Part shown: positions 1 through 39,725 of the stretch, one piece after another
Numbering within the stretch: position 1 is the first letter of the stretch
Layout of the letters: every line of letters starts with the position of its first letter
From: a virus
Lineage: Duplodnaviria; Caudoviricetes
Length of the DNA stretch: 61,208 nucleotides
Reading direction: 5' to 3' (one strand)
IMG/VR virus record: IMGVR_UViG_3300010330_000002
Coordinates: 1 to 61,208 of that record
Made by a program: the position numbers and the translations under genes
Notes under the pieces: model-generated
The model's input: only the letters and a program-made list of their open reading frames with translations
The model's database searches: none
What the model was told of the DNA's origin: nothing

Positions 1-123
1 ATTGTTGATCAGGTAGTCTTAAATCAACCTAAAACAATGGACGATTATGTCCGAGACTTGGTTGATACCACTGTCATTACTTTAGGGCAGACCAGTTTGA
101 CTGGATTGCCAGGCATAGCTTTA
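1..123. repeat. Terminal direct repeat / circular assembly overlap (identical to 61086-61208)
   Basis: attgttgatc...gcatagcttta is identical at both ends, and an ORF reads in frame across the join. Confidence 0.97.
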
Positions 124-6100: not shown

Positions 6101-6966
6101 TTAGGTCGTTTACCATGAACCTTATGGAATTATATAACTATACTTTGCGTCATATGCCTGCTAGTAAAAAGTTATGGGACCTGAATAAAGAAGGGCTAGA
6201 GTTTGTAGCATATAGCCTCCTAGCATTTACAATGTTTGGAGGGCTCCTTTCTATACCTTTCCTTGATGATTTGCTCAAATTACTTGAGCGACAGACAGGC
6301 AAGCCATTGAGACGCCAGTTCTTTAAAAAGATAGGCGATATTAATAGCCCGTTGGCTTATAGCCTGGAGCGAGGGCTGCCCTCATTGATAGGAGTAGATT
6401 TAAGTGGTTCTCTAAAGATAGAGATACCGACTTCTCCTTCTGATGCGCTGAACGCAATATTTGGCGTATATGGCGGCCTGGCCAAAAACGCTACGGACTC
6501 TCTTGTCGCATATCAAGGATTTGATAAGATCAACGCTGTTTATAGAATTTTGCCCCAGTTCATAGGCAATCCTCTAAAAGCATACGAAACATATAAAGGA
6601 TTGAAAAACCAATACAATAAACCTATATATGACGAAAACGGAAAACCTATTAAAGCTACTCCGTTAGAGGCTTTATTAATTGCCACAGGGTTTCGTCCTA
6701 CCAGGTTTGGGAAGACGTATTCTTATAAAAGCGCAGCAAGAAACATAGCTGCTCATTTTAGAGAAAGGCGAAATAAAATTTATAATATGTTTAGGTCGGC
6801 AGAGACACCTGCGCAACGTAAAAAAGTATTAGAAGAAATAATGAAATACAACAAGGAAGCATCTAAGTACATCACTGTTCCTAGAATAACTCTCAGGGCT
6901 CTTACTGCCGCTATTACCCCCAAGAGGGAGAAACTAGCTGAAGAACTAAGAATGAGAGGCCTCTAA
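37..6966 (+). CDS. Giant internal virion/ejection-type polyvalent protein, C-terminal part (true start 60381 across the junction, ~2556 aa); contains a zincin HExxH metallopeptidase-like motif
   Basis: Last gene of the structural operon; FLHEVVHALT...HEFTAYAMSDP; Lys-rich repeats; open frame from 60381 through the junction. Confidence 0.75.
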   Translation: MDDYVRDLVDTTVITLGQTSLTGLPGIALQTRLQKQEKVSPDKLIDEALKSAEQQPTPEAAGDTALAVLPLVITSLSKSKIDANDYAGWAKQAALAYEKIAKAIPDEDTLVKQTLSDTVKAFKLIASGRKLKDEELPILSHASAEVAEWPDDIPGKQALLKAIDTAIKTNEFPKPATAVPESNLLTLGFKASEQKKLSAEDKEKILKNKISRKDVVLKRDGTVVYKKEKAVGEELIPKETTPAPTKEKKKALPIEEGMKKTVDVYKNLGYSAKDISSLAPEELARIKKEKIPRKQVDIKEGKIVPKSVEKVSAKEVKPTKELIPKEEKPQQAIDITKLSQTPKSKIGDLVTIDENAKELVSVKGNKVTVHPDFFKKRKVTRAKLLQEAIQQKPEQAPPQKQKVPPPKFTDTQKRSLKKLGYSDKQIKRMKAEAAKEILSKKIKADFVSVKQDGTIKVFKESNEVEAALKKKAKVLKKKPKAVSLPEFPKMKKGKESPELAAKVYKINYDGQWPEGSMMGKLSGAYSFTLTGKTHPVFEKKGGATTIVVPKGELHKLPEIIKQKVKEYEAETGLSAPELIPGHPVKSEAKNLEQAPSKKMRLFKVNMKALKRVKASPTIEDKISAAYFRFQPTWEKFTGKGRYLMPNLGRTKLVQKEAKARGVQDKDLFRLDYLLSAKEWLAGTNFKEQIKKGLITEKEAQARIRFFDKFGENVFRFKSELTSGLTDMFRKWAEGEPYRLDPDEPDSPHINNIIKEAQGTPKEKIAPRYTLKELLHPPKDKAEDISNHLAYSLAYTIMDRYIRLAKSIGESALETLLDNMLTYGLVHYEMALEDEDSFFFNEMAPTELSDEQIQQLLKNTTFDKIADYLENFHFFYLKNNMGLHKLDTILGLSAGLMKYTMDLIRSEEYFESNDAGRLVRNEVKNVVFPAIQRIIQAADRLMVVSRDIKHIVGIKGIMKKLERMIIAYQNKEIDNPDKYIRTLEPYWRKVILPYLSRNERALAEKIGSEEFYASKKEGLAEKMLDNLVSRIDAHGASANGFKKLITQPNANAYQGLLYLAKHAQSAHVRYMASMLSDLGYAARALPDVEMRIARTPRSSRAIFNPRGPKVGAISIRPGLSSSEMEACFLHEVVHALTYYRLSINKEANRQIKDLMKEVRKHLSSAEKKVADLLLETVRSKTEVDWKEINRIVTGDESFRKHFDEFGEHWYGLLYAFSDPHEFTAYAMSDPSAYLFLNSIEIETEPKKSLWDKVVNFVADLLGIGKEKAALWTESVKGVLNIIKQSHLREVAELKSIRGEPRFSDYLKKQIMGEAPAEEALKDFQVKQFDGELAQFAPSLNDYDYEHLKGFAKQILKQSPKAAPKLADIGKVRKAVGLPLWTSLIHPEFAPLFKHVVKAMEEKNFSLHNILESGDIYFSQLNNEEKEAVNAAVKISDALNIKFSKKELAEFPTTVKKLKQLFNQLFLYRNAPAAIRQQLLEQSEFDLPKEYSQPEYIKRFKYFFDYALPSLKVKKIFGTAADGYYNYREVTNKTAEHISDKLLTLIIDTVIKDPMAANTVFTLIKHPKLKEQLSKESMAIYRPLIEEIENHSLFKKYEKIRELIDKLDFYSPRYRDQDAAEMIVAFDKEAFKASFSKHIAQTGSRAKALEKVYNDLSQQNKVYLREHVRRIDPDMHKKIDRAKKVFGKENVVLLLPNYKLAESVYGDITEGNVGSFLETLANKTKTAQANPETLSNILNEISNIIEEELLARSRAGQKFLHRNPYLILGYHLDKTTEETFNYVNNAANYMARIDALVNGLPLLNRIDPKQQPKLRDYAHKWFFDQLKPQTQFDKVVGKTKAYMFLWYLSGMLRPAAVQTTQMFVSTIPLAKTIYKIPMSKSINLFMKAYKDVILSGSIEDNDNLTEDEKKFLNVTYAKGVTTAQFINQIRDEVAGSGGWAVKAATWLSTPFAYMEQTNRLATALGVYRFFKEGNKGIKPDDPTLINEATDLINMSHFLMGKLNLPSIATGGTVPQGLARLAVTFRSFTMNLMELYNYTLRHMPASKKLWDLNKEGLEFVAYSLLAFTMFGGLLSIPFLDDLLKLLERQTGKPLRRQFFKKIGDINSPLAYSLERGLPSLIGVDLSGSLKIEIPTSPSDALNAIFGVYGGLAKNATDSLVAYQGFDKINAVYRILPQFIGNPLKAYETYKGLKNQYNKPIYDENGKPIKATPLEALLIATGFRPTRFGKTYSYKSAARNIAAHFRERRNKIYNMFRSAETPAQRKKVLEEIMKYNKEASKYITVPRITLRALTAAITPKREKLAEELRMRGL

Positions 6967-22683: not shown

Positions 22684-22712
22684 AATTTAAGATTTGAAAA
22701 TCCATTTGTCAA
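22684..22712 (-). promoter_or_regulatory. Sigma70-type leftward promoter
   Basis: TTGACA-17 bp-TAAATT; flanking AAAAATTTTTnCTTGACAAAT shared with the promoter at 17970-17998. Confidence 0.75.
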
Positions 22713-22749
22713 GCAAAAATTTTTTGGATAGAATCAAATCATTGAAATC

Positions 22750-23196
22750 ATGGAGGAAAAAATGAAAACGTTTTCACTTTTGCCATCAACCGAACCAAAA
22801 CAATTTTCCGATGAAGAACTGGATGGGTTTGATCTTCTTCCTCAGTCCTGGAAGACATTCGCCATTGAATATTTGAAGCATCGACGACCTATTCGAGCAG
22901 CAAAAAACGCAGGATTCAAAGACCCCAAAAAAATGGCGAAACGCCTGCTCCATAACGAGAAAGTAAAGCGTTATATGGAATACGAACAGGAAAGGATGAG
23001 AGAGCTAGCTCGAATAGATCGGGAGTATATAGTCTTAAAACTTAAAGAGGTAGCAGAAAGTGGCGCAAAAACGAGCGACCGACTCCAAGCTTTGAATTTG
23101 CTTGCCAGAATCGAGGGCCTACTCCAAGACAAAGCTCCTCAGCAGCCTCCTGTCCTCCTCTTTAACTTCCAGGGCTTAAAGGTAGACGATAAATAA
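22750..23196 (+). CDS. terS: Terminase small subunit
   Basis: FAIEYL..AAKNAGF..AKRLL..VKRY..KTSDRLQALNLLAR; likely start at 22762. Confidence 0.8.
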   Translation: MEEKMKTFSLLPSTEPKQFSDEELDGFDLLPQSWKTFAIEYLKHRRPIRAAKNAGFKDPKKMAKRLLHNEKVKRYMEYEQERMRELARIDREYIVLKLKEVAESGAKTSDRLQALNLLARIEGLLQDKAPQQPPVLLFNFQGLKVDDK

Positions 23197-23199
23197 GTA

Positions 23200-23231
23200 G
23201 GTTTGCGAAAAATTTTTGAGGCCTGTAAAAT
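23200..23231 (+). promoter_or_regulatory. Early-type promoter (GGTTTGC class)
   Basis: ggtTTGCGA-17-TAAAAT. Confidence 0.65.
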
Positions 23232-23262
23232 CAGGCCAAAATTTCGGAAAGGAGGAATCGAA

Positions 23263-23526
23263 ATGGCTTATTGTCGATGGGGGCCAAACAGTGATGTTTA
23301 TGTTTATCGTGGTTTTTCAGGATCGTGGTGGGGGTTCATTGCCAGACGTAATTTGCCTTTGCCTAATGGCGAAGACTGGTTTAAGTGTAGTTCTTTAGAA
23401 GAACTACAGCAGAAATTAACTGAACTGAGGGAACTTGGTTACAAAATACCTGATAGAACTTTTGAAAGAATTGGAAAGGAGGTAGATGATGGAGTTCTTA
23501 GAAGAATTGAAAGAGAAAGGATTTAA
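23263..23526 (+). CDS. Hypothetical early protein
   Basis: GAAAGGAGG RBS; MAYCRW..SDVYVY. Confidence 0.7.
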   Translation: MAYCRWGPNSDVYVYRGFSGSWWGFIARRNLPLPNGEDWFKCSSLEELQQKLTELRELGYKIPDRTFERIGKEVDDGVLRRIERERI

Positions 23527-25111
23527 GTCTCAAAAGCTAATAGGGATTGTTGCTATTAAATGTAAAGACTTGCAACTATTTCTGCCCGAGGGCATTTACT
23601 GCCCACCTACTGCTTTTTACAACGGTAAGCAAGTTTATTTATTGCGGGAGCCTTACAATCCGTGGGGCGGCCTTCCAAAGATGGCCCCAGCAGCTTGGGA
23701 AGACGTAGTTGCTGAGGTTTTTAACTATCACAACGAAGCAGTAATAAGAGCTTGCCCAGAAACGCCTCGTCATGGCGTATTGCCAAATGTAATAGTAGAA
23801 AGAGAAGACTGGGATAAACTTTACGCACTCATGCCTCCTTGTGAGGCAGTAATTCAGCCTTTTCTTAAAGACACAAATAACGTTGTGGCTAATGACAAGT
23901 TTATGTCAATTGGGCTAGGCCACGACGGAGCTACAAACAGATCGCCGACTACATTGTCTTTTCCTTTCAAACTAAATTATCGGCTAAGGAATACTGTTTC
24001 TCTGGCAGGAGAGGACGTTGATAATACGGAATTAGAGTTCTTGATTGACCAGTACATGGGAGTTTATTTGGTACAAATAAGGCGGGCAGCATCCGCACCC
24101 TATGTACCTATCTGCGGCAGGGGTAAGTGGCAAGGATTTGGGTTCAATGGGGAGCCACTAAGCCCGTATATTCTAATCGAGGGCTTGGAAGGGTTAGAGG
24201 AAATAGAAAACCTACAAGAAAGGACGGCAATTGTCCACATTGGGGGGAGTTTCAATTCCCACGCTGCGGCGTGGGCAAGACAAAAGAATTTTCCCTACCT
24301 CATACTAGACGATGAGAAATCTCTGGATGACGTTCTAAAAGCAAGAAAGCTCTACAGTAATGGATTTATGGTAGATACCAGGCCGTACAAAGAGCCGAAA
24401 AGAAAGAGTTATTCCTTTCCCGAAATCTTTCGGTTGGGGGCTAGATGCGGAGAAATATATTTTCCCACGACTTTACAAAAAGTAAAAGATTGGGTAGAGG
24501 GAGGGACCCTCCTTTTCATGTCATATGCCAGTGGCTGGCCTCATAACAAGAAAGCCGTATTTGCCGCTGGCATATACGCAAAGATCATTCCTAAAATAGC
24601 AATTATGTTATGTCTAGGTGAAGCTAGACATAAAACAAGGCGGAGCCATAGACATAAATATCCACTTGTACAAGAATTTCTAAAGGAGGATTTTCCTGCT
24701 AACAGTAGTGGCAGGATAAAACTCTATAATCACTTTATTTTCATTAGCGACAAGCTCGGTAGCCCCGATTATTTGAACCTGGCTTCGGAGTTGGAAAATA
24801 TGTTTTTTCAAGAAACCTGGGAAGAATCGTACGGGGGGAAGAGGTGGGGAAGAATAACTTCCTTGGCTAAAAAGGCGCTTAAAGCGCAAACAAACTCTGC
24901 AATAATCAATTCGGTCAACCTTTTGGTAAATGCACTGCACAATAGCAACTGGTTCCTTGACAAGCTGGTAGATATAGCATATTTCAATGCAATAGCTTGT
25001 CCGGAAAACAATACCCAGCACTATTTCTTAGCAGCTAACACGGCTTTAGGACTGGTAAACAGAATTCATCTGATAGAAAGAAAGGGGGAAAGTTATGAAA
25101 AGAAAATCTAG
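23486..25111 (+). CDS. PPDK/PEP-synthase-like ATP-grasp plus phosphohistidine swivel domain, fused to an uncharacterised C-terminal domain
   Basis: VIQPF, ELEF..VYLVQIR (ATP-grasp); GGSFNSHAAAWARQKNFP (His swivel); GEARH..YGGKRW..HN C-terminal domain. Confidence 0.75.
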   Translation: MMEFLEELKEKGFKSQKLIGIVAIKCKDLQLFLPEGIYCPPTAFYNGKQVYLLREPYNPWGGLPKMAPAAWEDVVAEVFNYHNEAVIRACPETPRHGVLPNVIVEREDWDKLYALMPPCEAVIQPFLKDTNNVVANDKFMSIGLGHDGATNRSPTTLSFPFKLNYRLRNTVSLAGEDVDNTELEFLIDQYMGVYLVQIRRAASAPYVPICGRGKWQGFGFNGEPLSPYILIEGLEGLEEIENLQERTAIVHIGGSFNSHAAAWARQKNFPYLILDDEKSLDDVLKARKLYSNGFMVDTRPYKEPKRKSYSFPEIFRLGARCGEIYFPTTLQKVKDWVEGGTLLFMSYASGWPHNKKAVFAAGIYAKIIPKIAIMLCLGEARHKTRRSHRHKYPLVQEFLKEDFPANSSGRIKLYNHFIFISDKLGSPDYLNLASELENMFFQETWEESYGGKRWGRITSLAKKALKAQTNSAIINSVNLLVNALHNSNWFLDKLVDIAYFNAIACPENNTQHYFLAANTALGLVNRIHLIERKGESYEKKI

Positions 25112-25661
25112 TATATGTACTTGTAACAGTTTTGGGCTTACCCATGCATTTACTGTAGAAAACCTTGAATTTTTTGGTGGCGGGATAAGATATCTAAATC
25201 TTGATGACTATGATCTGGTACTCAACGCCAGCGGTGTCCCTGCAACAACTAGAGTCAAAGGTAATGGGAAAGCTAGAGAGTTATTTCCCAGTCTTTTTTC
25301 TATCAAAACTGATGCAGCGGTTATTGAGATAGATTGGCCAGATGGATCAGTTCCTCCTCTCCCCAGGGAATGGTGGATTAACCTAGTAAACAAATTAAAA
25401 AGAATATCTGCTTCCCCATTTAGAATAGCTTGCTGTTGTGTTGGGGGGCATGGGAGAACGGGGACAATGTTAAGTATTTTTGCGGGGCTACTAAACCAGG
25501 GTAAAGATCCTGTAGCCTTCGTGAGGCGGAACTACTGTCCCAGAGCAGTAGAAAGCTTATCCCAAAAAACTTACATCGAGATGGTGACCGGAAAGGAGGT
25601 GAGAGCGAAAATAGAGAAATACGTATGGTACGGAGGAGGTGATATACACGAAATGTATTAG
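25095..25661 (+). CDS. Cys-based protein tyrosine / dual-specificity phosphatase
   Basis: WPDG loop; CVGGHGRTG (CX5R); VR..YC..AVE..Q. Confidence 0.9.
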   Translation: MKRKSSICTCNSFGLTHAFTVENLEFFGGGIRYLNLDDYDLVLNASGVPATTRVKGNGKARELFPSLFSIKTDAAVIEIDWPDGSVPPLPREWWINLVNKLKRISASPFRIACCCVGGHGRTGTMLSIFAGLLNQGKDPVAFVRRNYCPRAVESLSQKTYIEMVTGKEVRAKIEKYVWYGGGDIHEMY

Positions 25662-25827
25662 ATGTAATTTGATGATGTTCAGAGTAAAAGAATTAACTTA
25701 CAAATGCCCGCTTTGCGGGGATGAACTAGACCTAAAGGAGGTAGAAAAAGATGATACAAGTAAGAGAGAAAGACGGCGCACTACACGTACAGGCAACAAA
25801 AGACGAAGCTCTAAACTCAAGCCCTAA
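25639..25827 (+). CDS. Small zinc-ribbon protein
   Basis: CxxC...CPxC; GGAGG upstream. Confidence 0.55.
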   Translation: MIYTKCIRCNLMMFRVKELTYKCPLCGDELDLKEVEKDDTSKRERRRTTRTGNKRRSSKLKP

Positions 25828-26212
25828 CAGGAGTTATGGCTGGGCGTTTGATCTTTACCCAACTGACTCTGATCTAGAAGTTTTTAGGGACATCGCTGAA
25901 GAAATGGATACTTTACCTAGCTTAGCTGGGACTGAGGCATTGTATGTTGCCGCAGAGATAGAGAATGGGTTTTTGTATGTAGACGGCACATCAATATGCG
26001 CAGTGCCTCCCGAATACCAAAAAGCAAGTGAGGCGAAGCAGGAACAGGAAGACAAGCCTGAACAAGAGACCGACGAAGTAGAGGTCTCCGAAGAGACGAC
26101 ATCGCCACGTTTGTGGCTAGTGGCCGTAGGAGACAAGGTGGTGTTTGTAAAAAGCGAAGAGAAACCAGAAGTCAAGGAAGTAAAGGAGGTTATCAATGTT
26201 GATATGCCCTAA
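25751..26212 (+). CDS. Acidic hypothetical protein
   Basis: AAGGAGG RBS. Confidence 0.7.
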   Translation: MIQVREKDGALHVQATKDEALNSSPNRSYGWAFDLYPTDSDLEVFRDIAEEMDTLPSLAGTEALYVAAEIENGFLYVDGTSICAVPPEYQKASEAKQEQEDKPEQETDEVEVSEETTSPRLWLVAVGDKVVFVKSEEKPEVKEVKEVINVDMP

Positions 26213-26309
26213 ATGCGGTAAAGGATACCTACATATTTGGAAAGGGGGATATAGATGTTCTTTATGTGGGTATATAATAAAACTACTTGATGTAGTTATT
26301 AAACGCTAA
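26196..26309 (+). CDS. 37-aa zinc-ribbon peptide (not in the ORF track)
   Basis: AAGGAGG RBS; MLICPKCGKGYLHIWKGGYRCSLCGYIIKLLDVVIKR. Confidence 0.7.
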   Translation: MLICPKCGKGYLHIWKGGYRCSLCGYIIKLLDVVIKR

Positions 26310-26318
26310 TTCCAAGCT

Positions 26319-26343
26319 AAGGGGCCTTTTGGCCCCTTTTTTT
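26319..26343 (+). terminator. Intrinsic terminator
   Basis: AAGGGGCC-tttt-GGCCCCTT plus T-tract. Confidence 0.85.
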
Positions 26344-30350: not shown

Positions 30351-31220
30351 ATGAAATGTTTTTACCATTCAAGTGATTTAGACGGTCATTGTTCAGGCGC
30401 AATCGTTAAATTTCATTACCCTGAGTGCGAAATGTGGCCTATTGACTACGGGGCTAGATTTCCTATAGACAAGATCAAAGAAGGTGGAACGGTTTATATG
30501 GTGGATTTTACTTTACAGCCTTTTGACCAAATGGTTGAGCTAGCTGAGAAATGTAAGCTCATCTGGATTGACCACCACAAGACCGCTTTGGAAGAAGCAG
30601 AGAAGAGAGGTTTTGTTGTACGTGGCCTGAGGCGTATAGGTATAGGGGCATGCTCTTTGACTTGGGAATTTATAAATTCACATTTGCCTATACCTAAACC
30701 TGTAAAACTTCTTGCCAAATACGATGTTTGGGACCATAGCGATCCTGACACCTTGCCTTTCCAGTACGGCATGAGACTGAGAGAGACCGATCCTGCCACA
30801 GAAGAAGGGATGAAGTTGTGGGGGCAATTGTTTAGCAGTTCGTTTTTCGCTTTTGACAAGATTTTGGAGGAAGGCAAGGTTATTCTCAAATACCAAAAAC
30901 AGATAGACACCAAATATTGCGCTAGGCATGCTTACCCTGCTGTTTTTGAGGGCTACAAAGCCCTTGTGCTGAACAGAGGCATTGTCAATAGCATGACGTT
31001 TGAAAATGCCCCAGGCGCAAAAGATGCGGACATTTTTGTAACCTATGTATTCAGTGGTAAAAATTGGATAGTTTCTTTGTATGCCAATAAACCTGACATA
31101 GATGTTAGCAGAATAGCCAAGAAGTACGGCGGTGGTGGTCATAAGGGAGCAGCAGGTTTCACCTGTTTGGATAAACAATTTCCACCTGAATTGAAAGGAG
31201 AGAATAGTCATGGCAATTGA
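30351..31220 (+). CDS. DHH/DHHA1 phosphoesterase (NrnB-like nano-RNase family)
   Basis: YH..DLDG, VDF, WIDHH, GGGGHKGAAGF. Confidence 0.9.
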   Translation: MKCFYHSSDLDGHCSGAIVKFHYPECEMWPIDYGARFPIDKIKEGGTVYMVDFTLQPFDQMVELAEKCKLIWIDHHKTALEEAEKRGFVVRGLRRIGIGACSLTWEFINSHLPIPKPVKLLAKYDVWDHSDPDTLPFQYGMRLRETDPATEEGMKLWGQLFSSSFFAFDKILEEGKVILKYQKQIDTKYCARHAYPAVFEGYKALVLNRGIVNSMTFENAPGAKDADIFVTYVFSGKNWIVSLYANKPDIDVSRIAKKYGGGGHKGAAGFTCLDKQFPPELKGENSHGN

Positions 31221-31476
31221 TTTAAGACCAGAGGTTAAGTGGTTTGCGGAAGTAATGGAATCCAAGCTGCGTAAATATGACAATGAAAAAGGCATTAGTG
31301 GATGGAAAGAGGAGTCTCGTTTGTGGTTGTACGCCCGCTTGGTTCAAGAGCTACTCGAACTACATGAAGCTCTTACTGAAGAGATTCCACTGGAAGAAAA
31401 TATACTAGAAGAATGTGCGGATGTAGCAAATGTGGCAATGATGATTGCTGATAAAGGAAGAGAAAAGGAGGAATGA
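31210..31476 (+). CDS. MazG-like all-alpha NTP pyrophosphohydrolase
   Basis: ELLELHEAL...EECADVANVAMMI. Confidence 0.75.
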   Translation: MAIDLRPEVKWFAEVMESKLRKYDNEKGISGWKEESRLWLYARLVQELLELHEALTEEIPLEENILEECADVANVAMMIADKGREKEE

Positions 31477-32036
31477 TGGATTTATACAAAGAAAGAGCTG
31501 CACTTAAATCTCTTCTAACTAATTGTATATTTAGATTTGACGGAATTAAGCTGTCATCAGGGAAGACCAGCCGCTATTATGTAGATGTTAGGGCGGTAAC
31601 CACACTTCCTGAAGGTGCAAAGTTGGCAGCTAAAATTATGGGAAAAATGATTGGTCCTGTTGATGCTGTGGGCGGGCCAATACTTGGGGCAGTTCCTATT
31701 TTGGGAGCGCTCGCAGCTTTAGAAAACTATCGTACTTTTATAGTTAGAAAAGAACCTAAAAAACATGGGCTTGGTAAATGGATTGAAGGATGTCTTGGAA
31801 AGAAAGTAGCAATTATTGATGATGTTGCAACTACAGGGCGTTCTTTAATAAGGGCAATCCAAATAATTAATGACCTGTCTCCTTGGACAGAAATAACTAA
31901 AGTCGTAGTTCTTGTTGATCGTCAAGAAGGAGCGCAAAAGAAACTTGCTAAACATGGCTATCAGTTAATGAGTGTTTTCCAGATGGACGAGCTTTTAAAA
32001 GTGAAAACGTTTTCACTGGAGGAAAGGAGTAAATAA
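31473..32036 (+). CDS. pyrE: Orotate phosphoribosyltransferase
   Basis: LSSGKTSRYYVD, VRKEPKKHG, IIDDVATTGRS, VLVDRQEG. Confidence 0.88.
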   Translation: MMDLYKERAALKSLLTNCIFRFDGIKLSSGKTSRYYVDVRAVTTLPEGAKLAAKIMGKMIGPVDAVGGPILGAVPILGALAALENYRTFIVRKEPKKHGLGKWIEGCLGKKVAIIDDVATTGRSLIRAIQIINDLSPWTEITKVVVLVDRQEGAQKKLAKHGYQLMSVFQMDELLKVKTFSLEERSK

Positions 32037-32768: not shown

Positions 32769-32982
32769 AATGGAACGAGTGTTTTACCAGAATAATGATT
32801 GGGGTTATATAGATCGCTCTGATTTATTACTTCGATTAAAAATCGAGGTAGACAACCTGGTAGAAACTATCATTAGTGGTAATTCAAAGAGGCTTGTTAC
32901 GAATTGTTGTAATATAGCTTTGTATGCCATGTTATTAGCAAAGGAGGATTGGGATGATAGATTGGGAAGGAATGGCGATTAA
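32713..32982 (+). CDS. Degenerate paralog of the MazG-like protein at 31210
   Basis: FANEME..W..LLRL..EV..L..CCNIALYAML versus FAEVME..W..YARL..EL..L..CADVANVAMM. Confidence 0.55.
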   Translation: MLCTGRILLKTDILKFANEMERVFYQNNDWGYIDRSDLLLRLKIEVDNLVETIISGNSKRLVTNCCNIALYAMLLAKEDWDDRLGRNGD

Positions 32983-33313
32983 GCATGGGTTTAATACACC
33001 AAAAGAACTTTTGGAGCATCTTTACTGGGATAAAAAGCTATCAACATTAGAAATAGCAGATAAATTAATTGTGTCAAATACATCAGTCTGGACCGCTCTT
33101 GTAAAGTACGGGATACCCACAAGAAGCCGAGCTAAGATAAGGTCGGGGCCTGGATGCCCCAAATGTTCTATAGGAAATTCAAAAGTGAGACATTCTGTCA
33201 GAACTAAGTCGGGCGTAATCAGGCATAGAATTTGTAACTCTTGCGGGACTAAATTTACAACAAAAGAAGTGGTTATAAACGATGAAGCTGAACTTTCTGG
33301 AACTGATAGTTAA
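32954..33313 (+). CDS. HTH plus C-terminal zinc-ribbon (NrdR/Ogr-like) regulator
   Basis: LSTLEIADKL.VS HTH; CPKC..RHRICNSCG.KFTT.E. Confidence 0.75.
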   Translation: MIDWEGMAIKHGFNTPKELLEHLYWDKKLSTLEIADKLIVSNTSVWTALVKYGIPTRSRAKIRSGPGCPKCSIGNSKVRHSVRTKSGVIRHRICNSCGTKFTTKEVVINDEAELSGTDS

Positions 33314-33783: not shown

Positions 33784-34005
33784 GTGAAAACGTTTTCAGA
33801 AACTAAAATGCCGTTTGGAAAATACAGGGGTATTTCTATAGCGTTAATAAATACAGGTTATTTGTCTTGGTTACTTGGCCAGGATTGGTTTTTGGAGGCT
33901 TATGACGATTTGGCTTCTAATATAGAAAAGGAATTAGTCTGGAGGGACCAATGGAATCTTCATTTTTATAAAGACAAAGTAAAACCTTATGGAGGAAACC
34001 AATGA
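33784..34005 (+). CDS. DUF3820-like small protein
   Basis: MPFGKYRG..I...YL.W. Confidence 0.75.
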   Translation: MKTFSETKMPFGKYRGISIALINTGYLSWLLGQDWFLEAYDDLASNIEKELVWRDQWNLHFYKDKVKPYGGNQ

Positions 34006-34340
34006 AAGTTGATTGGGACGAATTAGCTAAAAAACATGGCTTTGATAATATTAGAGACTTGATAATTGATTTATATTATCGCCAGAGCAAGAGTATACAA
34101 GATTTACATTCTTTATTGGGGGTTAGCCGAGGCTCGTTATATAGTTGCTTAAATCAGCTTAATCTCCCTTCTAAAGGTCGTGCTCTGGCTAGATATGTTG
34201 CTGGGCCTCCGTGCCCTAAGTGCGGAGCCACGAAAGCTAGGATTATCTATTCTAAAGGCTTTAGCTTCGGCCATAGAAGGATCAAGGTCTGTAAAGAGTG
34301 CGGTAACAAGTTTGTCACCATTGAGCGTGTAAAAGAGTAG
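34002..34340 (+). CDS. HTH plus zinc-ribbon regulator, paralog of 32954-33313
   Basis: VDWDELAKKHGF; CPKCG..RRIKVCKECG.KFVT.E. Confidence 0.75.
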   Translation: MKVDWDELAKKHGFDNIRDLIIDLYYRQSKSIQDLHSLLGVSRGSLYSCLNQLNLPSKGRALARYVAGPPCPKCGATKARIIYSKGFSFGHRRIKVCKECGNKFVTIERVKE

Positions 34341-34791: not shown

Positions 34792-36669
34792 TTGGTGAAA
34801 GTACAAAAAGTTTATAACTTTGATGACGTGCCAACTGTCCGAAAGTTCTATCTATCTGACAAGAAAATACGTGCCATAATAGGGCCTTATGGTTCTGGCA
34901 AATCTAGCGGGTGTGTTATTACTTTATTGAAGGTTGCTTCCGAGCAACAACCTGACCCCGAAGGGGTTCGTTACACACGATTTGTTATAATAAGAAATTG
35001 TTATTCGGACGATACCGAAATTTTGACTGAACAACGGGGATGGGTCTTATTTAAAGACCTTCTTTCAGAGGACAAGGTTGCTCAATATAATCCTTCAACA
35101 GATAGATTAGAATTTGTTTATCCTATTTATTATTATTGCGCTCCTTATGAAGGAAGAATGATCGGTGTTCGTTCTGATGAGATTGATTTTCTTGTAACTC
35201 CAGATCATAAATTGTTTGTTCGCACAAAAGATGCAGAAAATTATAGTTTAGTATTTGCAAAAGATTGTTTTGGCACTTTTACACGATTTATGTGCTCTCC
35301 AGAAAAAGAAGTAGCAATAAATCCTTCTCAATGGCGTGCGCAGTTTTATAAAGGTTTTGTATATTGTGTAGAAGTTCCGAGTCACGTTGTTCTGGTTCGG
35401 AGAAATGGAAAACCAGTATTATGTTCTCAAACTTATAGACAACTGAAGGACACTACTAAGAAAACTATAGATGAATGGTTGTCGTTCGCAGAGTGGAAAG
35501 AGTCCGAGCATTCTTACACCATTCATGTCCAAAAGGAAGACGGGACTATAATCCATTCTGAGTGGTTGCTTAGAGCCTTAGATCGTCCTGAGCACATTGC
35601 TAATTTGCTGTCTTTAGAGGTTACTGCTGGGTGGATAAACGAGGCACGAGAGATACCCAAAGAAATATTTGATAATTTAGAGTCCAGGCTGAGATACCCT
35701 CCTACTATTCGTGATTCTGAAGGCAATGTTATTTATGGCCCTACTTGGTCTGGTATTTTATTGGATACCAACCCGCCTGATACTGATCATTGGTTTTATA
35801 AATACTTTGAAGAGGATAGACCAGAAAAGGCGGAAATATTCCACCAACCGTCTGGGTTATCTCCTGAAGCTGAAAATATTAATAATTTGCCTCAGAATTA
35901 TTATGAAGACTTGGTAACAGGTAAAGACCCCGAATGGATTGATATTTATGTGCATGGCAAATATGGGTCCCTGAGAGAAGGGATGCCCGTTTTTACGCTG
36001 TACAATGACAAAGTTCATTGTGCTAAAGAGCCGTTGGCCCCGCTTCCAGGTATGAATACTTTAATAATAGGTATGGATTTTGGGCTTACTCCTGCTGCTG
36101 TTATTACCCAACAACCCCCAGGCAGGCTATTGGTTCTTGATGAAGTGGTTGTGTTTGAGCCGATTGATATTGGCGAGTTTACTAGAATGTTCCTATTGCC
36201 TTTCCTTTCCTCTGAGAAATACAAATTTAAGCATTATATTATAATAGGTGACCCTGCGGGGCGAGGGACATCCCAAACAGACGGACGTACTTGCTTTCAG
36301 GTACTTAATCAATTAGGGATACGAGCATATCCTGCGTTTTCCAATTCTATCCAGTTAAGAATCAATGCAGTAAACCAATATCTATCTCGTATTGACCCTT
36401 CTTCTGGGGAGGAAGCTCGGCCTGCGTTTTTGCTATCTCCTACTTGTATTACTTTAAGAAAAGCCTTGAAGACAAAGTATAAATTGAAGAAAATAAGCAT
36501 AGGCGGGGAGCGGTATGCTACTGCGCCTGTTAAAGATAAATACTCCCATGTGGCGGATGCTCTTCAATATGCGGCGTTGGGCCATACAATTAATAGTATA
36601 AATACTAGAACAGATTTGCCAGTCAGGGATTCGTCTCCTACAAGACTGGCTGGAACGGGTTATTACTAA
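34792..36669 (+). CDS. terL: Terminase large subunit (intein-containing)
   Basis: GPYGSGKSS, WINEARE, DTNPP, GMDFGLTP, SHVADALQY. Confidence 0.95.
   Translation: MVKVQKVYNFDDVPTVRKFYLSDKKIRAIIGPYGSGKSSGCVITLLKVASEQQPDPEGVRYTRFVIIRNCYSDDTEILTEQRGWVLFKDLLSEDKVAQYNPSTDRLEFVYPIYYYCAPYEGRMIGVRSDEIDFLVTPDHKLFVRTKDAENYSLVFAKDCFGTFTRFMCSPEKEVAINPSQWRAQFYKGFVYCVEVPSHVVLVRRNGKPVLCSQTYRQLKDTTKKTIDEWLSFAEWKESEHSYTIHVQKEDGTIIHSEWLLRALDRPEHIANLLSLEVTAGWINEAREIPKEIFDNLESRLRYPPTIRDSEGNVIYGPTWSGILLDTNPPDTDHWFYKYFEEDRPEKAEIFHQPSGLSPEAENINNLPQNYYEDLVTGKDPEWIDIYVHGKYGSLREGMPVFTLYNDKVHCAKEPLAPLPGMNTLIIGMDFGLTPAAVITQQPPGRLLVLDEVVVFEPIDIGEFTRMFLLPFLSSEKYKFKHYIIIGDPAGRGTSQTDGRTCFQVLNQLGIRAYPAFSNSIQLRINAVNQYLSRIDPSSGEEARPAFLLSPTCITLRKALKTKYKLKKISIGGERYATAPVKDKYSHVADALQYAALGHTINSINTRTDLPVRDSSPTRLAGTGYY
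34999..35430 (+). mobile_element. Mini-intein (144 aa) in TerL, ending in Ser-Gln
   Basis: CYSDDTEILT...VTPDHK...VYCVEV...CSQ/T; removal restores IIRN-TYRQL. Confidence 0.9.
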
Positions 36670-36680
36670 GGAGTTAAATA

Positions 36681-39600
36681 ATGGTATCCTTTGTACCTGT
36701 TAAAGATATGTCTTCTGCGCTCCTTCCAGAAGAACCATTTACCGAAATGGTGGAGCTTAAAACCCAAGATCAATATGTATTGTCTAATTTGTCTAATTAT
36801 GTTTTAAGTAAATTTGAGGAAGCCAGAAGAGCCAAAGTTGGAATAGAAGAGAGATTAATAGACTGCCTACAACGCTTCAAGTCCGAGTATTCCCCCCAGA
36901 AATTACAGGAAATTAAATCCATAGACGCTCCTCCTATTTATATTCCTCTTACTTCTATAAAGGTGCGAGCCTTGACAGCTTGGCTAGTTGACGTTCTCTT
37001 TCAAACTCCTGACCTTCCTTATGACATAACTCCTACTCCTATTCCAGAATTACCTTTAGAAGTTCAACATGCTTTGGCACGAAGAGTATACGATACCATT
37101 ATGCCGATGGTGGAATTGTTGCCTTTTAACGAGCTGCAATCTATGGCCCTCGACGCTAAGAACTTGGCTGAAAAGGAAATTAAAATAGAAATAGATAAAT
37201 GGTCTAAAAAGTTGGCCGAAGGATTCAAGAAAAAATTAGACGATGTATTTATTGAAGGAGGACTTCCCGAAGCTCTTTCTGCGATGTGCGTAGACATTGC
37301 AATCTTTCCTACTGCTATAATTAAAGGTGGAATTCTGAGGAAAGAGAAAGGATATGTGAGGACTAAATATGGGTTGGAGCCAAAGAACAAAGTAATCTAT
37401 ACCTTTAATAGAGTATCTCCTTTTAACGCATATCCTGCTCCTTATTCCAGTGGCTTTGAAAATTATTTTATAGAAGTCGTGCCCCTCTTACCTAACGATC
37501 TTTATGATATGATCGGGATGCCAGGGTATAATTCTAAAATACTTACAGAGGTATTAGATAGGTATGAGCACGGATATAAATTTCACCATATGAACTATGG
37601 GTTGGATAAGGAAGCGCTGGAAGGCAATGAATTTGCCTCTTCTTCGGATTATGAATATATCGACGTGTTGGAATTTTGGGGGCCAGTCAAAGGCTCTTTA
37701 TTAAAAGATTTTGGTATAAGTGTTCCGAGCAGTAACGCTTACTATGAAGCTACGGTATGGGTAATTGAGGATTATGTAATCAAAGCAGTTTTGAATGAAA
37801 ATCCTTTGGGGCTTAAACCCTACGCAAAAGCTTCTTTTATAGATATTCCCGATTCTTTTTGGGGGCAGGCTCTGCCAGAAGTATTGGCTCCTATTCAAGA
37901 TTCTGTTAATGCTTTTGCCAGGTCTGTAGTAGTTAACGCTGCTATGTCTTCGGGGCCTATGGTAGAGCGCAACATAGATAGAGTCGATCCGAGTCAGCCT
38001 AAGATGATTATTCCCTGGCATATGTATGATGCTCATGACTCCGCTCTTAACTCCGCTCCTGCATACCGATTCTTTCAGCCTCAACTGACCGCAGATCGTT
38101 TGTCTACTGTTATGGCCTATTATCTAAAGTTGGCTGATGAGACTTGCGGCATTCCCAGCTATGCTCATGGTGATATTACAGTTGGCGGAGCAGGTCGAGC
38201 TTTGGCAGACTATGAATTAGTTCTAACTGAGACTGGAGCCAAACCTATTTCTTCTATCGAAGTGGGAGATAAGGTGGCAGGGACCGATGGCAAGTTTTAT
38301 GAAGTTCTGGGAGTTTACCCACAGAAAGGAAAACGTTTAATCTATCGAGTGCATTTTAGTAATGGATTTACAATTGATTGCGATGCAGATCATTTATGGA
38401 CTGTATCTAGTAAGCCTTCTAGGAAGAGTAGTTGGCAAACTCTGACTTTAGCCGAACTATTGAATAAAGGAATATTTAGACAAGATAACGGTCGTAAGAG
38501 TAAAGGTTTAAGACCAAAATGGGCAGTGTCCAAGATAAAACCAGTACAGTTTCCTAAACGTGAAGTGAAGATAGACCCTTATACTTTGGGTGTAATTTTA
38601 GGAGACGGAGACAATCGAGGCAGAATTCATCTAAATACAGAAGACAGCGAACATATAATTAGCCAGTTGGCCTATAGTGTAGGAAAGCCCAGTTATAATT
38701 CTGCTAAAACTGCTGTTTCTTATACAGTTAAAGGCGTAAAGAAGTGGTTGAGGTTCTATGGTTTGGGAGATACGACCGCACCAGATAAATTCATTCCAGA
38801 GGACTATCTGTTTAATACGGTAGACGTTCGATTGGCTTTGCTGCGTGGGCTTATGGACACAGATGGTTACACCAGCGAAGGGCGAGTATTTTTATCTTCT
38901 TCATCCAGAAAGCTGATAGAGCAAGTAAAGTTTCTTGTGATTTCTCTTGGTGGTTGGGCGGGAACTATAACAGAGTACCCTGAAGGAGAAGGCGAAATTA
39001 AAGGCCGTACAATTCATAGAAAGAAGAATTATAGGTTATATTTTTCTCTGAGTGAAAACGTTTTCACTTTGCCTCGAAAGAAGGAAGCAGTAAAAGGTGG
39101 AAAACGTCCTACATGGTTTGTTTATATCAGAGGGATAGAATTGCTGGGCGAAGGTACTACTACCTGTATAAAAGTTTCTAGCCCCGACCATTTGTTTTTG
39201 TGTGCCAATCTTATTCCTACGCATAACACAGCTACAGGGTTGTCAATGCTTACAAACAACGCCACACGTGGAATCAAGGCTGTATTGAGAAATATAGATA
39301 AAGGGATTATTGAGCCAATTGTGAAACGGCAATATTATACCTTAATAAAAGAGGCGAATGTTACAGACATTCCTGATCTTAAAATCAGAACCAAAGGCTC
39401 TATTTCCTTGTCTGAAAGAGAAATGGAAGCTACAAGGGCCTTGGAATTTCTGCGAGTGGTTAGCAATCCTCTTGACCAAAATCTGGTTCCTTTAGAAGGC
39501 AGGCGTTACTTGCTTACTTCTGCTGCCAAAGCTACTGGATTTGACCCTGATAGGATATTTGGCTACGAAGCTGACTTACAACAAATGCTTCGCCCTCTAA

Positions 39601-39725
39601 TTGAGGAAACGCAGGCTCAATTTGCTCAGCAACAAAGTCCTATAAATGTACCTCAGAATAAAGCGGTGCAGCTTGGTATGGGCGTTTCTAATTATGTAAA
39701 TGAAAACGGGAGGGTAGCTATATGA
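36681..39725 (+). CDS. Portal protein (intein-containing)
   Basis: Follows TerL; VLEFWG, SFWG, GAGR/TATGLSML. Confidence 0.88.
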   Translation: MVSFVPVKDMSSALLPEEPFTEMVELKTQDQYVLSNLSNYVLSKFEEARRAKVGIEERLIDCLQRFKSEYSPQKLQEIKSIDAPPIYIPLTSIKVRALTAWLVDVLFQTPDLPYDITPTPIPELPLEVQHALARRVYDTIMPMVELLPFNELQSMALDAKNLAEKEIKIEIDKWSKKLAEGFKKKLDDVFIEGGLPEALSAMCVDIAIFPTAIIKGGILRKEKGYVRTKYGLEPKNKVIYTFNRVSPFNAYPAPYSSGFENYFIEVVPLLPNDLYDMIGMPGYNSKILTEVLDRYEHGYKFHHMNYGLDKEALEGNEFASSSDYEYIDVLEFWGPVKGSLLKDFGISVPSSNAYYEATVWVIEDYVIKAVLNENPLGLKPYAKASFIDIPDSFWGQALPEVLAPIQDSVNAFARSVVVNAAMSSGPMVERNIDRVDPSQPKMIIPWHMYDAHDSALNSAPAYRFFQPQLTADRLSTVMAYYLKLADETCGIPSYAHGDITVGGAGRALADYELVLTETGAKPISSIEVGDKVAGTDGKFYEVLGVYPQKGKRLIYRVHFSNGFTIDCDADHLWTVSSKPSRKSSWQTLTLAELLNKGIFRQDNGRKSKGLRPKWAVSKIKPVQFPKREVKIDPYTLGVILGDGDNRGRIHLNTEDSEHIISQLAYSVGKPSYNSAKTAVSYTVKGVKKWLRFYGLGDTTAPDKFIPEDYLFNTVDVRLALLRGLMDTDGYTSEGRVFLSSSSRKLIEQVKFLVISLGGWAGTITEYPEGEGEIKGRTIHRKKNYRLYFSLSENVFTLPRKKEAVKGGKRPTWFVYIRGIELLGEGTTTCIKVSSPDHLFLCANLIPTHNTATGLSMLTNNATRGIKAVLRNIDKGIIEPIVKRQYYTLIKEANVTDIPDLKIRTKGSISLSEREMEATRALEFLRVVSNPLDQNLVPLEGRRYLLTSAAKATGFDPDRIFGYEADLQQMLRPLIEETQAQFAQQQSPINVPQNKAVQLGMGVSNYVNENGRVAI
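38199..39227 (+). mobile_element. Class 3 intein (343 aa) with LAGLIDADG homing endonuclease, in the portal
   Basis: Ala1 start; DHLW, TCIKV, PTHN/T (WCT triplet); LGVILGDG and LRGLMDTDG. Confidence 0.88.

Follow-up and report, generated by a model that had tools for sequence, protein, structure and literature searches.

A virus genome of the class Caudoviricetes (IMG/VR record IMGVR_UViG_3300010330_000002) was analyzed over its full 61,208 bp. This stretch, called the window here, is a complete virus record with direct terminal repeats at its ends. It encodes a protein of 541 amino acids (aa) whose gene overlaps that of a cysteine-based phosphatase. The best overall explanation, to which a probability of about one half is given, is that the two genes belong to a phosphotransfer module that is conserved in phages, has three essential parts and acts on a substrate other than pyruvate. 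The three parts would be a histidine-relay dikinase core, an all-helical domain that would act as the acceptor domain, and the phosphatase. This explanation is carried by the domain architecture of the kinase, the conservation of its residues, the linkage of the genes and the existence of the module in both fused and split forms. The two genes and the predicted domains of the kinase are as follows, with the expect value (E) given for each database match.

23486-25111, + strand: kinase, 541 aa (ATP-grasp, swivel and helical C-terminal domain), assigned from the open reading frame (ORF), an AlphaFold2 (AF2) model and conservation
23486-24100, + strand: reduced ATP-grasp domain, kinase residues 1-205, assigned from the AF2 model, structure matches and conservation
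24101-24385, + strand: phosphohistidine swivel, kinase residues 206-300, with the codon of the catalytic His259 at 24260-24262
24398-25111, + strand: putative acceptor domain, all-alpha, kinase residues 305-541 (PHROG 20946, E 3e-5)
25095-25661, + strand: Cys-based phosphatase of the protein tyrosine phosphatase/dual-specificity phosphatase (PTP/DSP) fold, 188 aa, overlapping the kinase gene by 17 nucleotides (PHROG 17568, E 4e-12)

A first-pass annotation, made from the DNA letters alone, had proposed a dikinase-phosphatase pair at this position. Both ORFs lie where it placed them, and the gene overlap it described is borne out.

The kinase core and its helical C-terminal domain

Sequence comparison of the 541-aa protein gave no match in Pfam, NCBIfam, the PDB or the INPHARED phage collection. 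Two divergent relatives of the kinase likewise had no match in INPHARED, and a profile built from 60 relatives returned chance-level matches to the PDB (best E 0.1). Close homologues numbered only three in an index of 5.8 billion proteins. Searched exhaustively with phmmer, 1.84 billion cluster representatives (50% clustering) yielded 346 relatives at E <= 1e-3, most of them 500-1100 aa in length. The matches to these relatives cover roughly residues 80-500 of the kinase, and the three-part architecture is therefore a trait of the family.

An AF2 model of the kinase, computed from the 60-member alignment, reached a predicted local distance difference test score (pLDDT) of 90.4 and a predicted template modelling score (pTM) of 0.91. 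The top Foldseek match of this model was pyruvate phosphate dikinase (PPDK; 1dik, E 7e-4). With VIA-align, the ATP-grasp part was matched to rifampin phosphotransferase (RPH; 5hv1) with a Z score of 10.5 and a root-mean-square deviation of 3.6 over 170 aligned residues, the match covering residues 4-204. Other matches from this comparison were synapsin (Z 11.9), PPDK (1vbg, Z 7.2) and HpeI (9goj, Z 6.8). In the ESM Atlas, the neighbours of the N-terminal part were clusters carrying PPDK_N and PEP-utilizers domains.

Among the 60 aligned kinases, E184, Q197, R199 and H259 are invariant (60/60), and positions conserved in at least 90% of the sequences include an R-x-C-P-x-x-P-x-H-G block, G148, T150, G152, G254 and S258. 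Within the block, which lies in the ATP-grasp domain, R88, C90, P91, P94, H96 and G97 form a near-invariant motif. The short motifs that had been quoted as ATP-grasp remnants in the first-pass annotation fall at conserved positions, and the ATP-grasp assignment itself agrees with the AF2 model and with the RPH and PPDK matches. The swivel is seen in the model as a strand, a GG-S-x-x-S-H motif, a helix and a strand around His259. Family models of this domain match few members, and weakly: PF00391 in 2 of 60 (E < 0.01) and GWD1_pHisD in a single kinase (E 0.007). The invariance of H259 upholds the phosphohistidine swivel that was claimed earlier, at weak domain-level sequence significance. As modelled, the kinase fits the superfamily of histidine-relay, phosphoenolpyruvate (PEP)-utilising dikinases by its ATP-grasp and swivel-histidine features.

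Additional features were seen in a small fraction of kinases. Multiple CxxC motifs are present in 11 of 153. Two of 32 kinases (L025, 4981-8226; L028, 5182-7725) carry an N-terminal left-handed beta-helix (Hexapep/LbH) domain; this domain is typical of acyl- and nucleotidyl-transferases and may point to the chemistry of the pathway.

The C-terminal domain is all-alpha in both AF2 models, that of the full-length kinase and that of the domain alone. Folded alone from 33 sequences, it was predicted to form 11 helices (pLDDT 80.7, pTM 0.84). A Pfam scan of 33 members gave single chance matches and none to PEP-utilizers_C. A PEP/pyruvate TIM barrel was ruled out for this domain by the two models and by the missing PEP-utilizers_C match. 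Structure prediction and Foldseek comparison thus agree with the earlier suggestion that a helical domain stands in place of the pyruvate-binding barrel.

Comparisons of the C-terminal domain with known proteins gave little else. Its profile had no match among PDB sequences (best E 0.87), and its model had none by Foldseek against the PDB (best E 0.22). The best VIA-align match among 48,161 chains was with GPCR-like helical bundles at Z 6.2, a score under the noise level of that tool for helical proteins. Three unnamed viral proteins in BFVD were matched with probabilities of 0.89-0.96 but with E >= 0.06. A word-index search with the domain profile returned only the kinase itself and one 513-aa relative. 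The nearest clusters by ESM Atlas features carry PF27448 (Rph_4th) at a score of 0.89, which is below threshold and serves as a lead only. No known fold is recognised in the modelled domain, and newness of the fold itself is not claimed.

The residues of this domain are well conserved. Positions kept in at least 90% of the 60 members are G378, E379, R381, R410, W445, G450, G451, W454, N478, H485, N486, G488 and K493. A polar cluster comprising E379, R381, H382, R410, G450, G451, W454, N478, H485, N486 and K493 is conserved in 37 fused and free forms of the domain, and three histidines (H353, H382 and H485) are near-invariant. The cluster of Glu, Arg, His, Asn and Lys residues looks like a phosphoryl-transfer site.

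The phosphatase partner and the split cassette of cultured phages

The CX5R motif of the phosphatase runs from C115 to R121 (Cys codon at 25437-25439), and the Asp of the WPD loop is D83. As would be expected of an active enzyme from its sequence, C10, D83, W94, C115, G120, R121, G123, E153 and Q157 are invariant in 31 of 31 phosphatases, and W81 is near-invariant. The best matches among solved sequences were PRL-3 chains (E 5e-4) and other PTPs including receptor PTPs, and the loop aligns with the WPFDD of PRL-3. The window phosphatase itself scores below the Pfam cut-offs (PTP-SAK, 20.1 bits against 27; Y_phosphatase, 17.1 bits against 20.9); several phosphatases of relatives pass, for example with 39.5 and 35.0 bits on PTP-SAK. 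The adjacent CX5R phosphatase with a WPD loop, as described in the first-pass annotation, is therefore confirmed by residues that are invariant throughout the 31 sequences.

The linkage of the two genes was assessed in 41 IMG/VR loci with kinase relatives, on contigs ranging from 43 kb to a 448-kb jumbo phage. Phosphatase homologues were sought by hidden Markov model (HMM) on all six frames, open ends included. A phosphatase gene adjoins the kinase gene on the same strand in 38 of the 41 viral loci, downstream in 35 and upstream in 3, and in many of the loci the gene ends overlap at the stop and start codons. Co-occurrence of the kinase and phosphatase homologues, which the earlier proposal had called for, is thus widespread. 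The other neighbours are mostly not common between loci; the pairing is therefore not mere synteny of one phage group. No fusion of kinase and phosphatase was present among 153 kinase proteins.

The phosphatases of relatives are usually 250-550 aa in length. At least two CxxC motifs are present in 18 of 30, and at least 10 K/R within 20 residues in 9 of 30. A search for longer phosphatase forms returned two unnamed proteins only. In the window, the zinc-ribbon and basic features are found in separate small genes that follow the phosphatase gene:

25639-25827, + strand: zinc-ribbon protein, 62 aa, with two CxxC pairs and a basic tail (11 K/R in 20 residues)
25751-26212, + strand: acidic protein, 153 aa, isoelectric point (pI) 4.2, a weak homologue of the protein located 3' of the phosphatase in relatives
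26196-26309, + strand: zinc-ribbon peptide, 37 aa, with two CxxC pairs (PHROG 32002, E 7e-6), the last gene of the unit

The zinc-ribbon peptides that were noted earlier after the phosphatase gene are thus present as the 62-aa and 37-aa ORFs. The 62-aa protein is probably the split-off counterpart of the zinc-ribbon and basic extensions that are fused to the phosphatases of relatives. A protein of about 140-170 aa with an acidic tail is encoded in 13 loci, directly 3' of the phosphatase in 12 of the 13. An HMM of these 13 proteins matches the window at 25745-26212, the 153-aa ORF (E 2.5e-5).

A free-standing form of the C-terminal domain exists in cultured phages. A 337-aa gene product of Vibrio phage vB_VneS_J26 (J26), annotated as a "putative membrane protein", belongs to PHROG 20946 (E 2.5e-173), and hhalign aligned it with the C-terminal domain of the window kinase at a probability of 96% (E 3.6e-9). 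The two have in common the signature motifs (G/R)-E-x-R-H, (Y/F)-G-G-x-x-W and H-N-N-G-x-x-x-N-K, and the core motifs of the domain are kept in both the fused and the free forms. Because the domain is homologous to a free cassette protein, the window kinase is taken to be a strongly diverged kinase core fused to the acceptor protein. The free-standing protein was found in 41 phage records: 34 of Vibrio, 4 of Stenotrophomonas, 2 of Rhizobium and 1 of Rhodobacter phages.

In J26, DLP5, RcZahn and RHph_Y1_11, the cassette lies between the large terminase gene and the DNA polymerase or portal genes. It is made up of a PPDK_N + PEP-utilizers kinase, small ORFs, a PHROG 17568 phosphatase, the helical protein and a protein of about 260 aa; a second phosphatase paralogue is present in the DLP5, RcZahn and RHph_Y1_11 cassettes. 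The J26 kinase (L042, 14495-16570) matches PPDK_N (E 1e-45) and PEP-utilizers (E 2e-19) in Pfam and has no PEP-utilizers_C match at E <= 0.01. The protein of about 260 aa is PHROG 25950 in J26; it was not matched in the PDB, and neither the window nor any of the 41 loci encodes a homologue. A 160-aa ORF of J26 is not similar to the 153-aa ORF of the window. Two genes of DLP5 (L044, 5468-5938 and 6993-7781), both annotated as thymidylate synthase, encode PTP-fold phosphatase homologues, and the label "thymidylate synthase" on PHROG 17568 is probably a misannotation propagated from DLP5.

The J26, Virtus, DLP3 and DLP5 papers list the kinase as pyruvate phosphate dikinase (PMC12038007, PMC9229204, PMC7326821, PMC5834331). 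In the J26 and Virtus papers it is read as a glycolytic (carbon-metabolism) auxiliary metabolic gene (PMC12038007, PMC9229204), and in the accessible text of the DLP3 and DLP5 papers it appears in gene lists only (PMC7326821, PMC5834331). The cassette genes are not treated as one module in the accessible text of any of these four papers (PMC12038007, PMC9229204, PMC7326821, PMC5834331).

Phosphate flow and candidate substrates

We infer the following route for the phosphate, with a role for the acceptor domain and a pathway common to kinase and phosphatase. In PEP synthase, glucan water dikinase (GWD) and RPH, the beta-phosphate of ATP ends on the histidine and AMP leaves. By analogy with these enzymes, the reduced ATP-grasp domain would bind ATP and phosphorylate His259 of the PEP-utilizer-type swivel, the beta-phosphate passing to the histidine and AMP being released. 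The swivel would then carry the phosphate to the all-helical acceptor domain (PHROG 20946), which is fused to the kinase here and is a separate protein in the cultured relatives. There, E379, R381, H382, the Y/F-G-G-x-x-W motif, H485, N486 and K493 would form a second active site at which a non-pyruvate substrate is phosphorylated. The coupled Cys phosphatase (C115, R121, D83) would act in the same pathway. It would most probably remove the phosphate on the substrate, or a different one, once an intermediate step has taken place, so that the group would activate the substrate, or provide a handle on it, only transiently; the phosphatase is less likely to be a futile eraser. The first-pass annotation had described the pair as a writer and an eraser acting on one target. 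That description is unproven, and the coupled pair may equally catalyze successive steps of a pathway or form a His-to-Cys relay.

The substrate class that appears most likely is nucleic acid or a nucleotide precursor, which would imply a function in DNA modification or in the nucleotide pool. This assignment is tentative and stands well below even odds. It is suggested because zinc ribbons and basic tails accompany the phosphatase, because the C-terminal domain is basic (median pI 8.9), because the cassette sits among replication genes in the isolates, and because two carriers, DLP3 and DLP5, have heavily modified DNA of unexplained chemistry. The DNA of DLP3 resists 15 of 15 restriction enzymes (PMC7326821), and that of DLP5 is cut by only 4 of 36 (PMC5834331).

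A more specific version is possible, and doubtful at this stage: the dikinase, helical domain and phosphatase would constitute an unrecognised DNA-modification route that acts on DNA or on a deoxynucleotide precursor, with the phosphate as an activating or leaving group that is later cleared. The known thymidine hypermodification pathway employs a 5-hydroxymethyldeoxyuridine (5-hmdU) DNA kinase and aGPT-Pplase, together with a hydroxymethylase homologous to ThyA. The corresponding families (dUMP/dCMP hydroxymethylase, aGPT-Pplase and P-loop 5-HMUDK) gave no match in Pfam and PHROG scans of 56 window ORFs, 10 of them in or around the module and 46 elsewhere (45 of these at least 90 aa). If true, such a route could be the source of the near-complete restriction resistance of DLP3 and DLP5 DNA, and DNA hypermodification would then have a third activation chemistry, in addition to those of P-loop 5-hmdU kinases and of glycosyltransferases. 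A literature search returned nothing linking a dikinase with phage hypermodification and nothing relevant on a dikinase with phage anti-defense.

Several observations weigh against the module as proposed and against its link to nucleic acid. Neither PPDK_N nor PEP-utilizers matches the core of the window kinase significantly in sequence. The profile of this kinase, when compared with those of the PPDK_N + PEP-utilizers kinases of the isolates, aligns over only 25-27 columns around the histidine (E 0.013-0.017, probability about 3%), where the catalytic-His motifs line up. Since the sequence match is limited to this motif, homology of the cores rests on structure, motifs and shared partners. 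Synapsin, an unrelated ligase, was among the fold matches at Z 11.9, and the fold alone is therefore no proof of a dikinase. Three near-identical contigs of one lineage (L001-L003) have no phosphatase within the 5-13 kb of their loci. The identity matrices of kinases and phosphatases are correlated overall (Mantel r 0.89, 0 of 2000 permutations) with only r 0.23 among distant pairs, so that the correlation shows co-inheritance and no more. The small cassette ORFs of the isolates are mostly without zinc ribbons. The link to DNA modification is correlative and is confounded by other genes of DLP3 and DLP5, namely those for a glycosyltransferase and for sugar enzymes (PMC7326821, PMC5834331). Restriction data for other carriers were not found in the Virtus, RcZahn and Vp08/Vp11 papers. 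Finally, Pfam and PHROG scans of the window gave no hydroxymethylase or other recognised base-modifying enzyme.

The L001-L003 lineage is unusual in other respects as well. Its kinase is shorter (513 aa) with the acceptor domain present, and its neighbouring genes are unlike those of all other loci.

Modification of proteins during host takeover is an unlikely alternative to the nucleic-acid reading. Here the target of the kinase would be a host or phage protein (RNA polymerase or a defence protein, for instance), and resetting that protein, or stripping host phosphoproteins, would fall to the phosphatase. The PTP/DSP fold is classically that of a protein phosphatase, and PRL-3 and receptor PTPs are the closest solved sequences. 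The conserved small acidic protein could be a protein substrate or a mimic of one, and zinc ribbons often mediate protein contacts with the transcription machinery. However, no kinase-substrate docking domain was recognised in Pfam scans of 60 + 32 kinases, and we know of no histidine-relay dikinase that acts on proteins other than phosphotransfer carriers. The strict 1:1 coupling of kinase and phosphatase would also be left unexplained.

Mobilisation of glycogen or another glucan is improbable. The cycle it assumes, in which a host storage glucan is phosphorylated by the kinase and dephosphorylated by the phosphatase, would speed degradation and feed phage replication. To our knowledge, GWD with SEX4, LSF2 or laforin is the only well-known obligate pair of a histidine-relay dikinase and a DSP-family phosphatase on one substrate; the co-occurrence in 38 of 41 loci and the one weak GWD1 phospho-His match among 60 kinases point the same way. 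Nevertheless, Pfam scans of 60 + 32 kinases and 31 phosphatases gave no carbohydrate-binding or starch-binding module and no other glucan-related domain, and in this respect the analogy with glucan dikinases drawn in the first-pass annotation finds no support. As accessory domains the proteins carry zinc ribbons and Lys/Arg-rich tails, and no glycogen-degrading enzymes are encoded nearby.

Slim odds are given to a phosphorelay as in the phosphotransferase system (PTS), in which phosphate would pass from His259, perhaps by way of the helical domain, to Cys115 of the phosphatase and on to a final acceptor. In the PTS, phosphate from Enzyme I, which shares its swivel family with the kinase, finally reaches a Cys of EIIB; phospho-Cys is used by some EIIB proteins. 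A stoichiometric complex is suggested by the translational coupling of the two genes and by their adjacency in nearly all loci, and the near-invariant H353, H382 and H485 of the helical domain would be suited to a relay. The invariant WPD Asp (D83) together with E153 and Q157 fits a hydrolytic phosphatase instead, and we know of no precedent for a PTP-fold phosphodonor.

A genuine PPDK or PEP synthase acting as an auxiliary metabolic gene is scarcely credible, even though GenBank records and papers label the kinase of the isolates in this way and residues 524-691 of the J26 protein were modelled, with PEP docked, as a TIM-like PEP-binding domain of four strands (PMC12038007), since the C-terminal domain of the window kinase is all-alpha, neither this kinase nor that of J26 matches PEP-utilizers_C, and the constant partners (phosphatase and helical protein) have no role in PEP/pyruvate interconversion; the label as a pyruvate phosphate dikinase auxiliary gene is very probably wrong. 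A phosphotransfer module with a non-pyruvate substrate is preferred over each of these alternatives.

Genome context and comparison with known systems

The rightward gene set that contains the module starts at a divergent junction at about 22.7 kb of the window. Upstream of the kinase gene and at the end of the unit, it includes the following features:

22750-23196, + strand: Terminase_2/helix-turn-helix-like protein, 148 aa (Terminase_2, 28.5 bits), the first gene of the rightward unit
between the 148-aa gene and the 541-aa kinase gene, + strand: 107-aa ORF, from the ORF list
26319-26338, + strand: strong intrinsic-terminator-like hairpin with an 8-bp stem (6 GC pairs) followed by a T run

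The Terminase_2-like gene at 22750-23196 lies 11.6 kb upstream of the large terminase gene, and its product may be a DNA-binding regulator rather than a packaging subunit. Shine-Dalgarno-like purine runs precede the start codons of the kinase and the phosphatase. The module had been described as one promoter-terminator unit (23200-26343). Its downstream border agrees with the terminator-like hairpin. Its upstream border is not supported: the promoter candidate at about 23203 is weak (9 of 12 matches), a better candidate lies at 22706-22734 (10 of 12), and promoter-like sites in the region are at chance level (17 observed, 13.2 +/- 3.7 expected from shuffled sequence).

Elsewhere, the window encodes a family A DNA polymerase, a primase, DnaB-like and superfamily 2 helicases and a UvsX-like recombinase, as well as a terminase, a major capsid protein and tail genes. 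Located 5-6 kb 3' of the module are a DHH-family phosphoesterase (30351-31220, + strand; PHROG 4771) and a phosphoribosyltransferase (31473-32036, + strand; PF00156). Two paralogous small proteins (32954-33313 and 34002-34340, + strand) have C-terminal NrdR-type zinc ribbons. The large terminase (34792-36669, + strand) contains extra internal stretches that match PHROGs labelled ribonucleotide reductase and thymidylate synthase, and a 1014-aa ORF (36681-39725, + strand) combines a portal/adaptor-like half with a P-loop terminase/DnaC-like half. Both oddities could be explained by inteins or by fusions. Neither PHROG nor Pfam gave a match to a giant 2309-aa ORF (37-6966, + strand) that runs open into the 5' end of the window.

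The module is widespread, with 346 representatives and 41 cultured-phage records of the split form, yet no function has been assigned to it and Pfam has no entry for it. Recognition of the kinase, the phosphatase and PHROG 20946 as one unit provides a testable system in easily grown phages such as RcZahn. It also defines a putative acceptor domain for histidine-relay dikinases, with a set of residues predicted as candidates for catalysis. Were DNA or a nucleotide the substrate, the module would account for the modified DNA of Delepquintavirus and add a new chemistry to phage counter-defence.

Several known systems resemble parts of this module. RPH (PDB 5HV1) and RPH-like small-molecule dikinases have, like the window kinase, an ATP-grasp domain, a phospho-His swivel and a substrate domain that is not a TIM barrel. 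However, RPH was not matched by the C-terminal domain among the best 50 structure matches, nor is there a Pfam match. The swivel of RPH is C-terminal, unlike that of the window kinase, whose ATP-grasp domain is much reduced (about 205 aa) and which has an obligatory Cys-phosphatase partner. PPDK and PEP synthase share with the window kinase the order of ATP-grasp followed by His swivel and the motifs E...Q-x-R and GG-x-x-x-S-H-A-A. In contrast to these enzymes and to PTS Enzyme I, the window kinase has no TIM-barrel PEP/pyruvate domain and no Pfam-level PPDK_N or PEP-utilizers match.

Obligate partnership of a histidine-relay dikinase with a DSP-fold phosphatase is known for GWD with SEX4, LSF2 and laforin, as in the window pair. 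GWD differs in its domain order and acceptor domain, and the window family is without carbohydrate-binding modules. In CreHI/CreD, HpeHI and phenylphosphate synthase PpsAB, a dikinase installs a phosphate that is removed later in the same pathway. These systems serve cellular phenolic catabolism and have other substrate domains and non-PTP phosphatases; the likeness of HpeI (9goj) to the window kinase is limited to the shared core (ATP-grasp, Z 6.8).

The closest counterpart in composition is the cassette of VHS1/SIO-2-like vibriophages, Delepquintavirus (DLP3, DLP5), RcZahn and Rhizobium phages, which has the same three components in split form. It differs in having a canonical PPDK_N + PEP-utilizers kinase with an extra C-terminal piece of its own, the helical domain as a separate gene, a second phosphatase paralogue (DLP5, RcZahn, RHph_Y1_11) and the protein of about 260 aa. 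The enzyme classes in the module are already known; the new elements are the putative acceptor domain, the view of the triad as a single module that exists fused as well as split, and the breadth of its occurrence.

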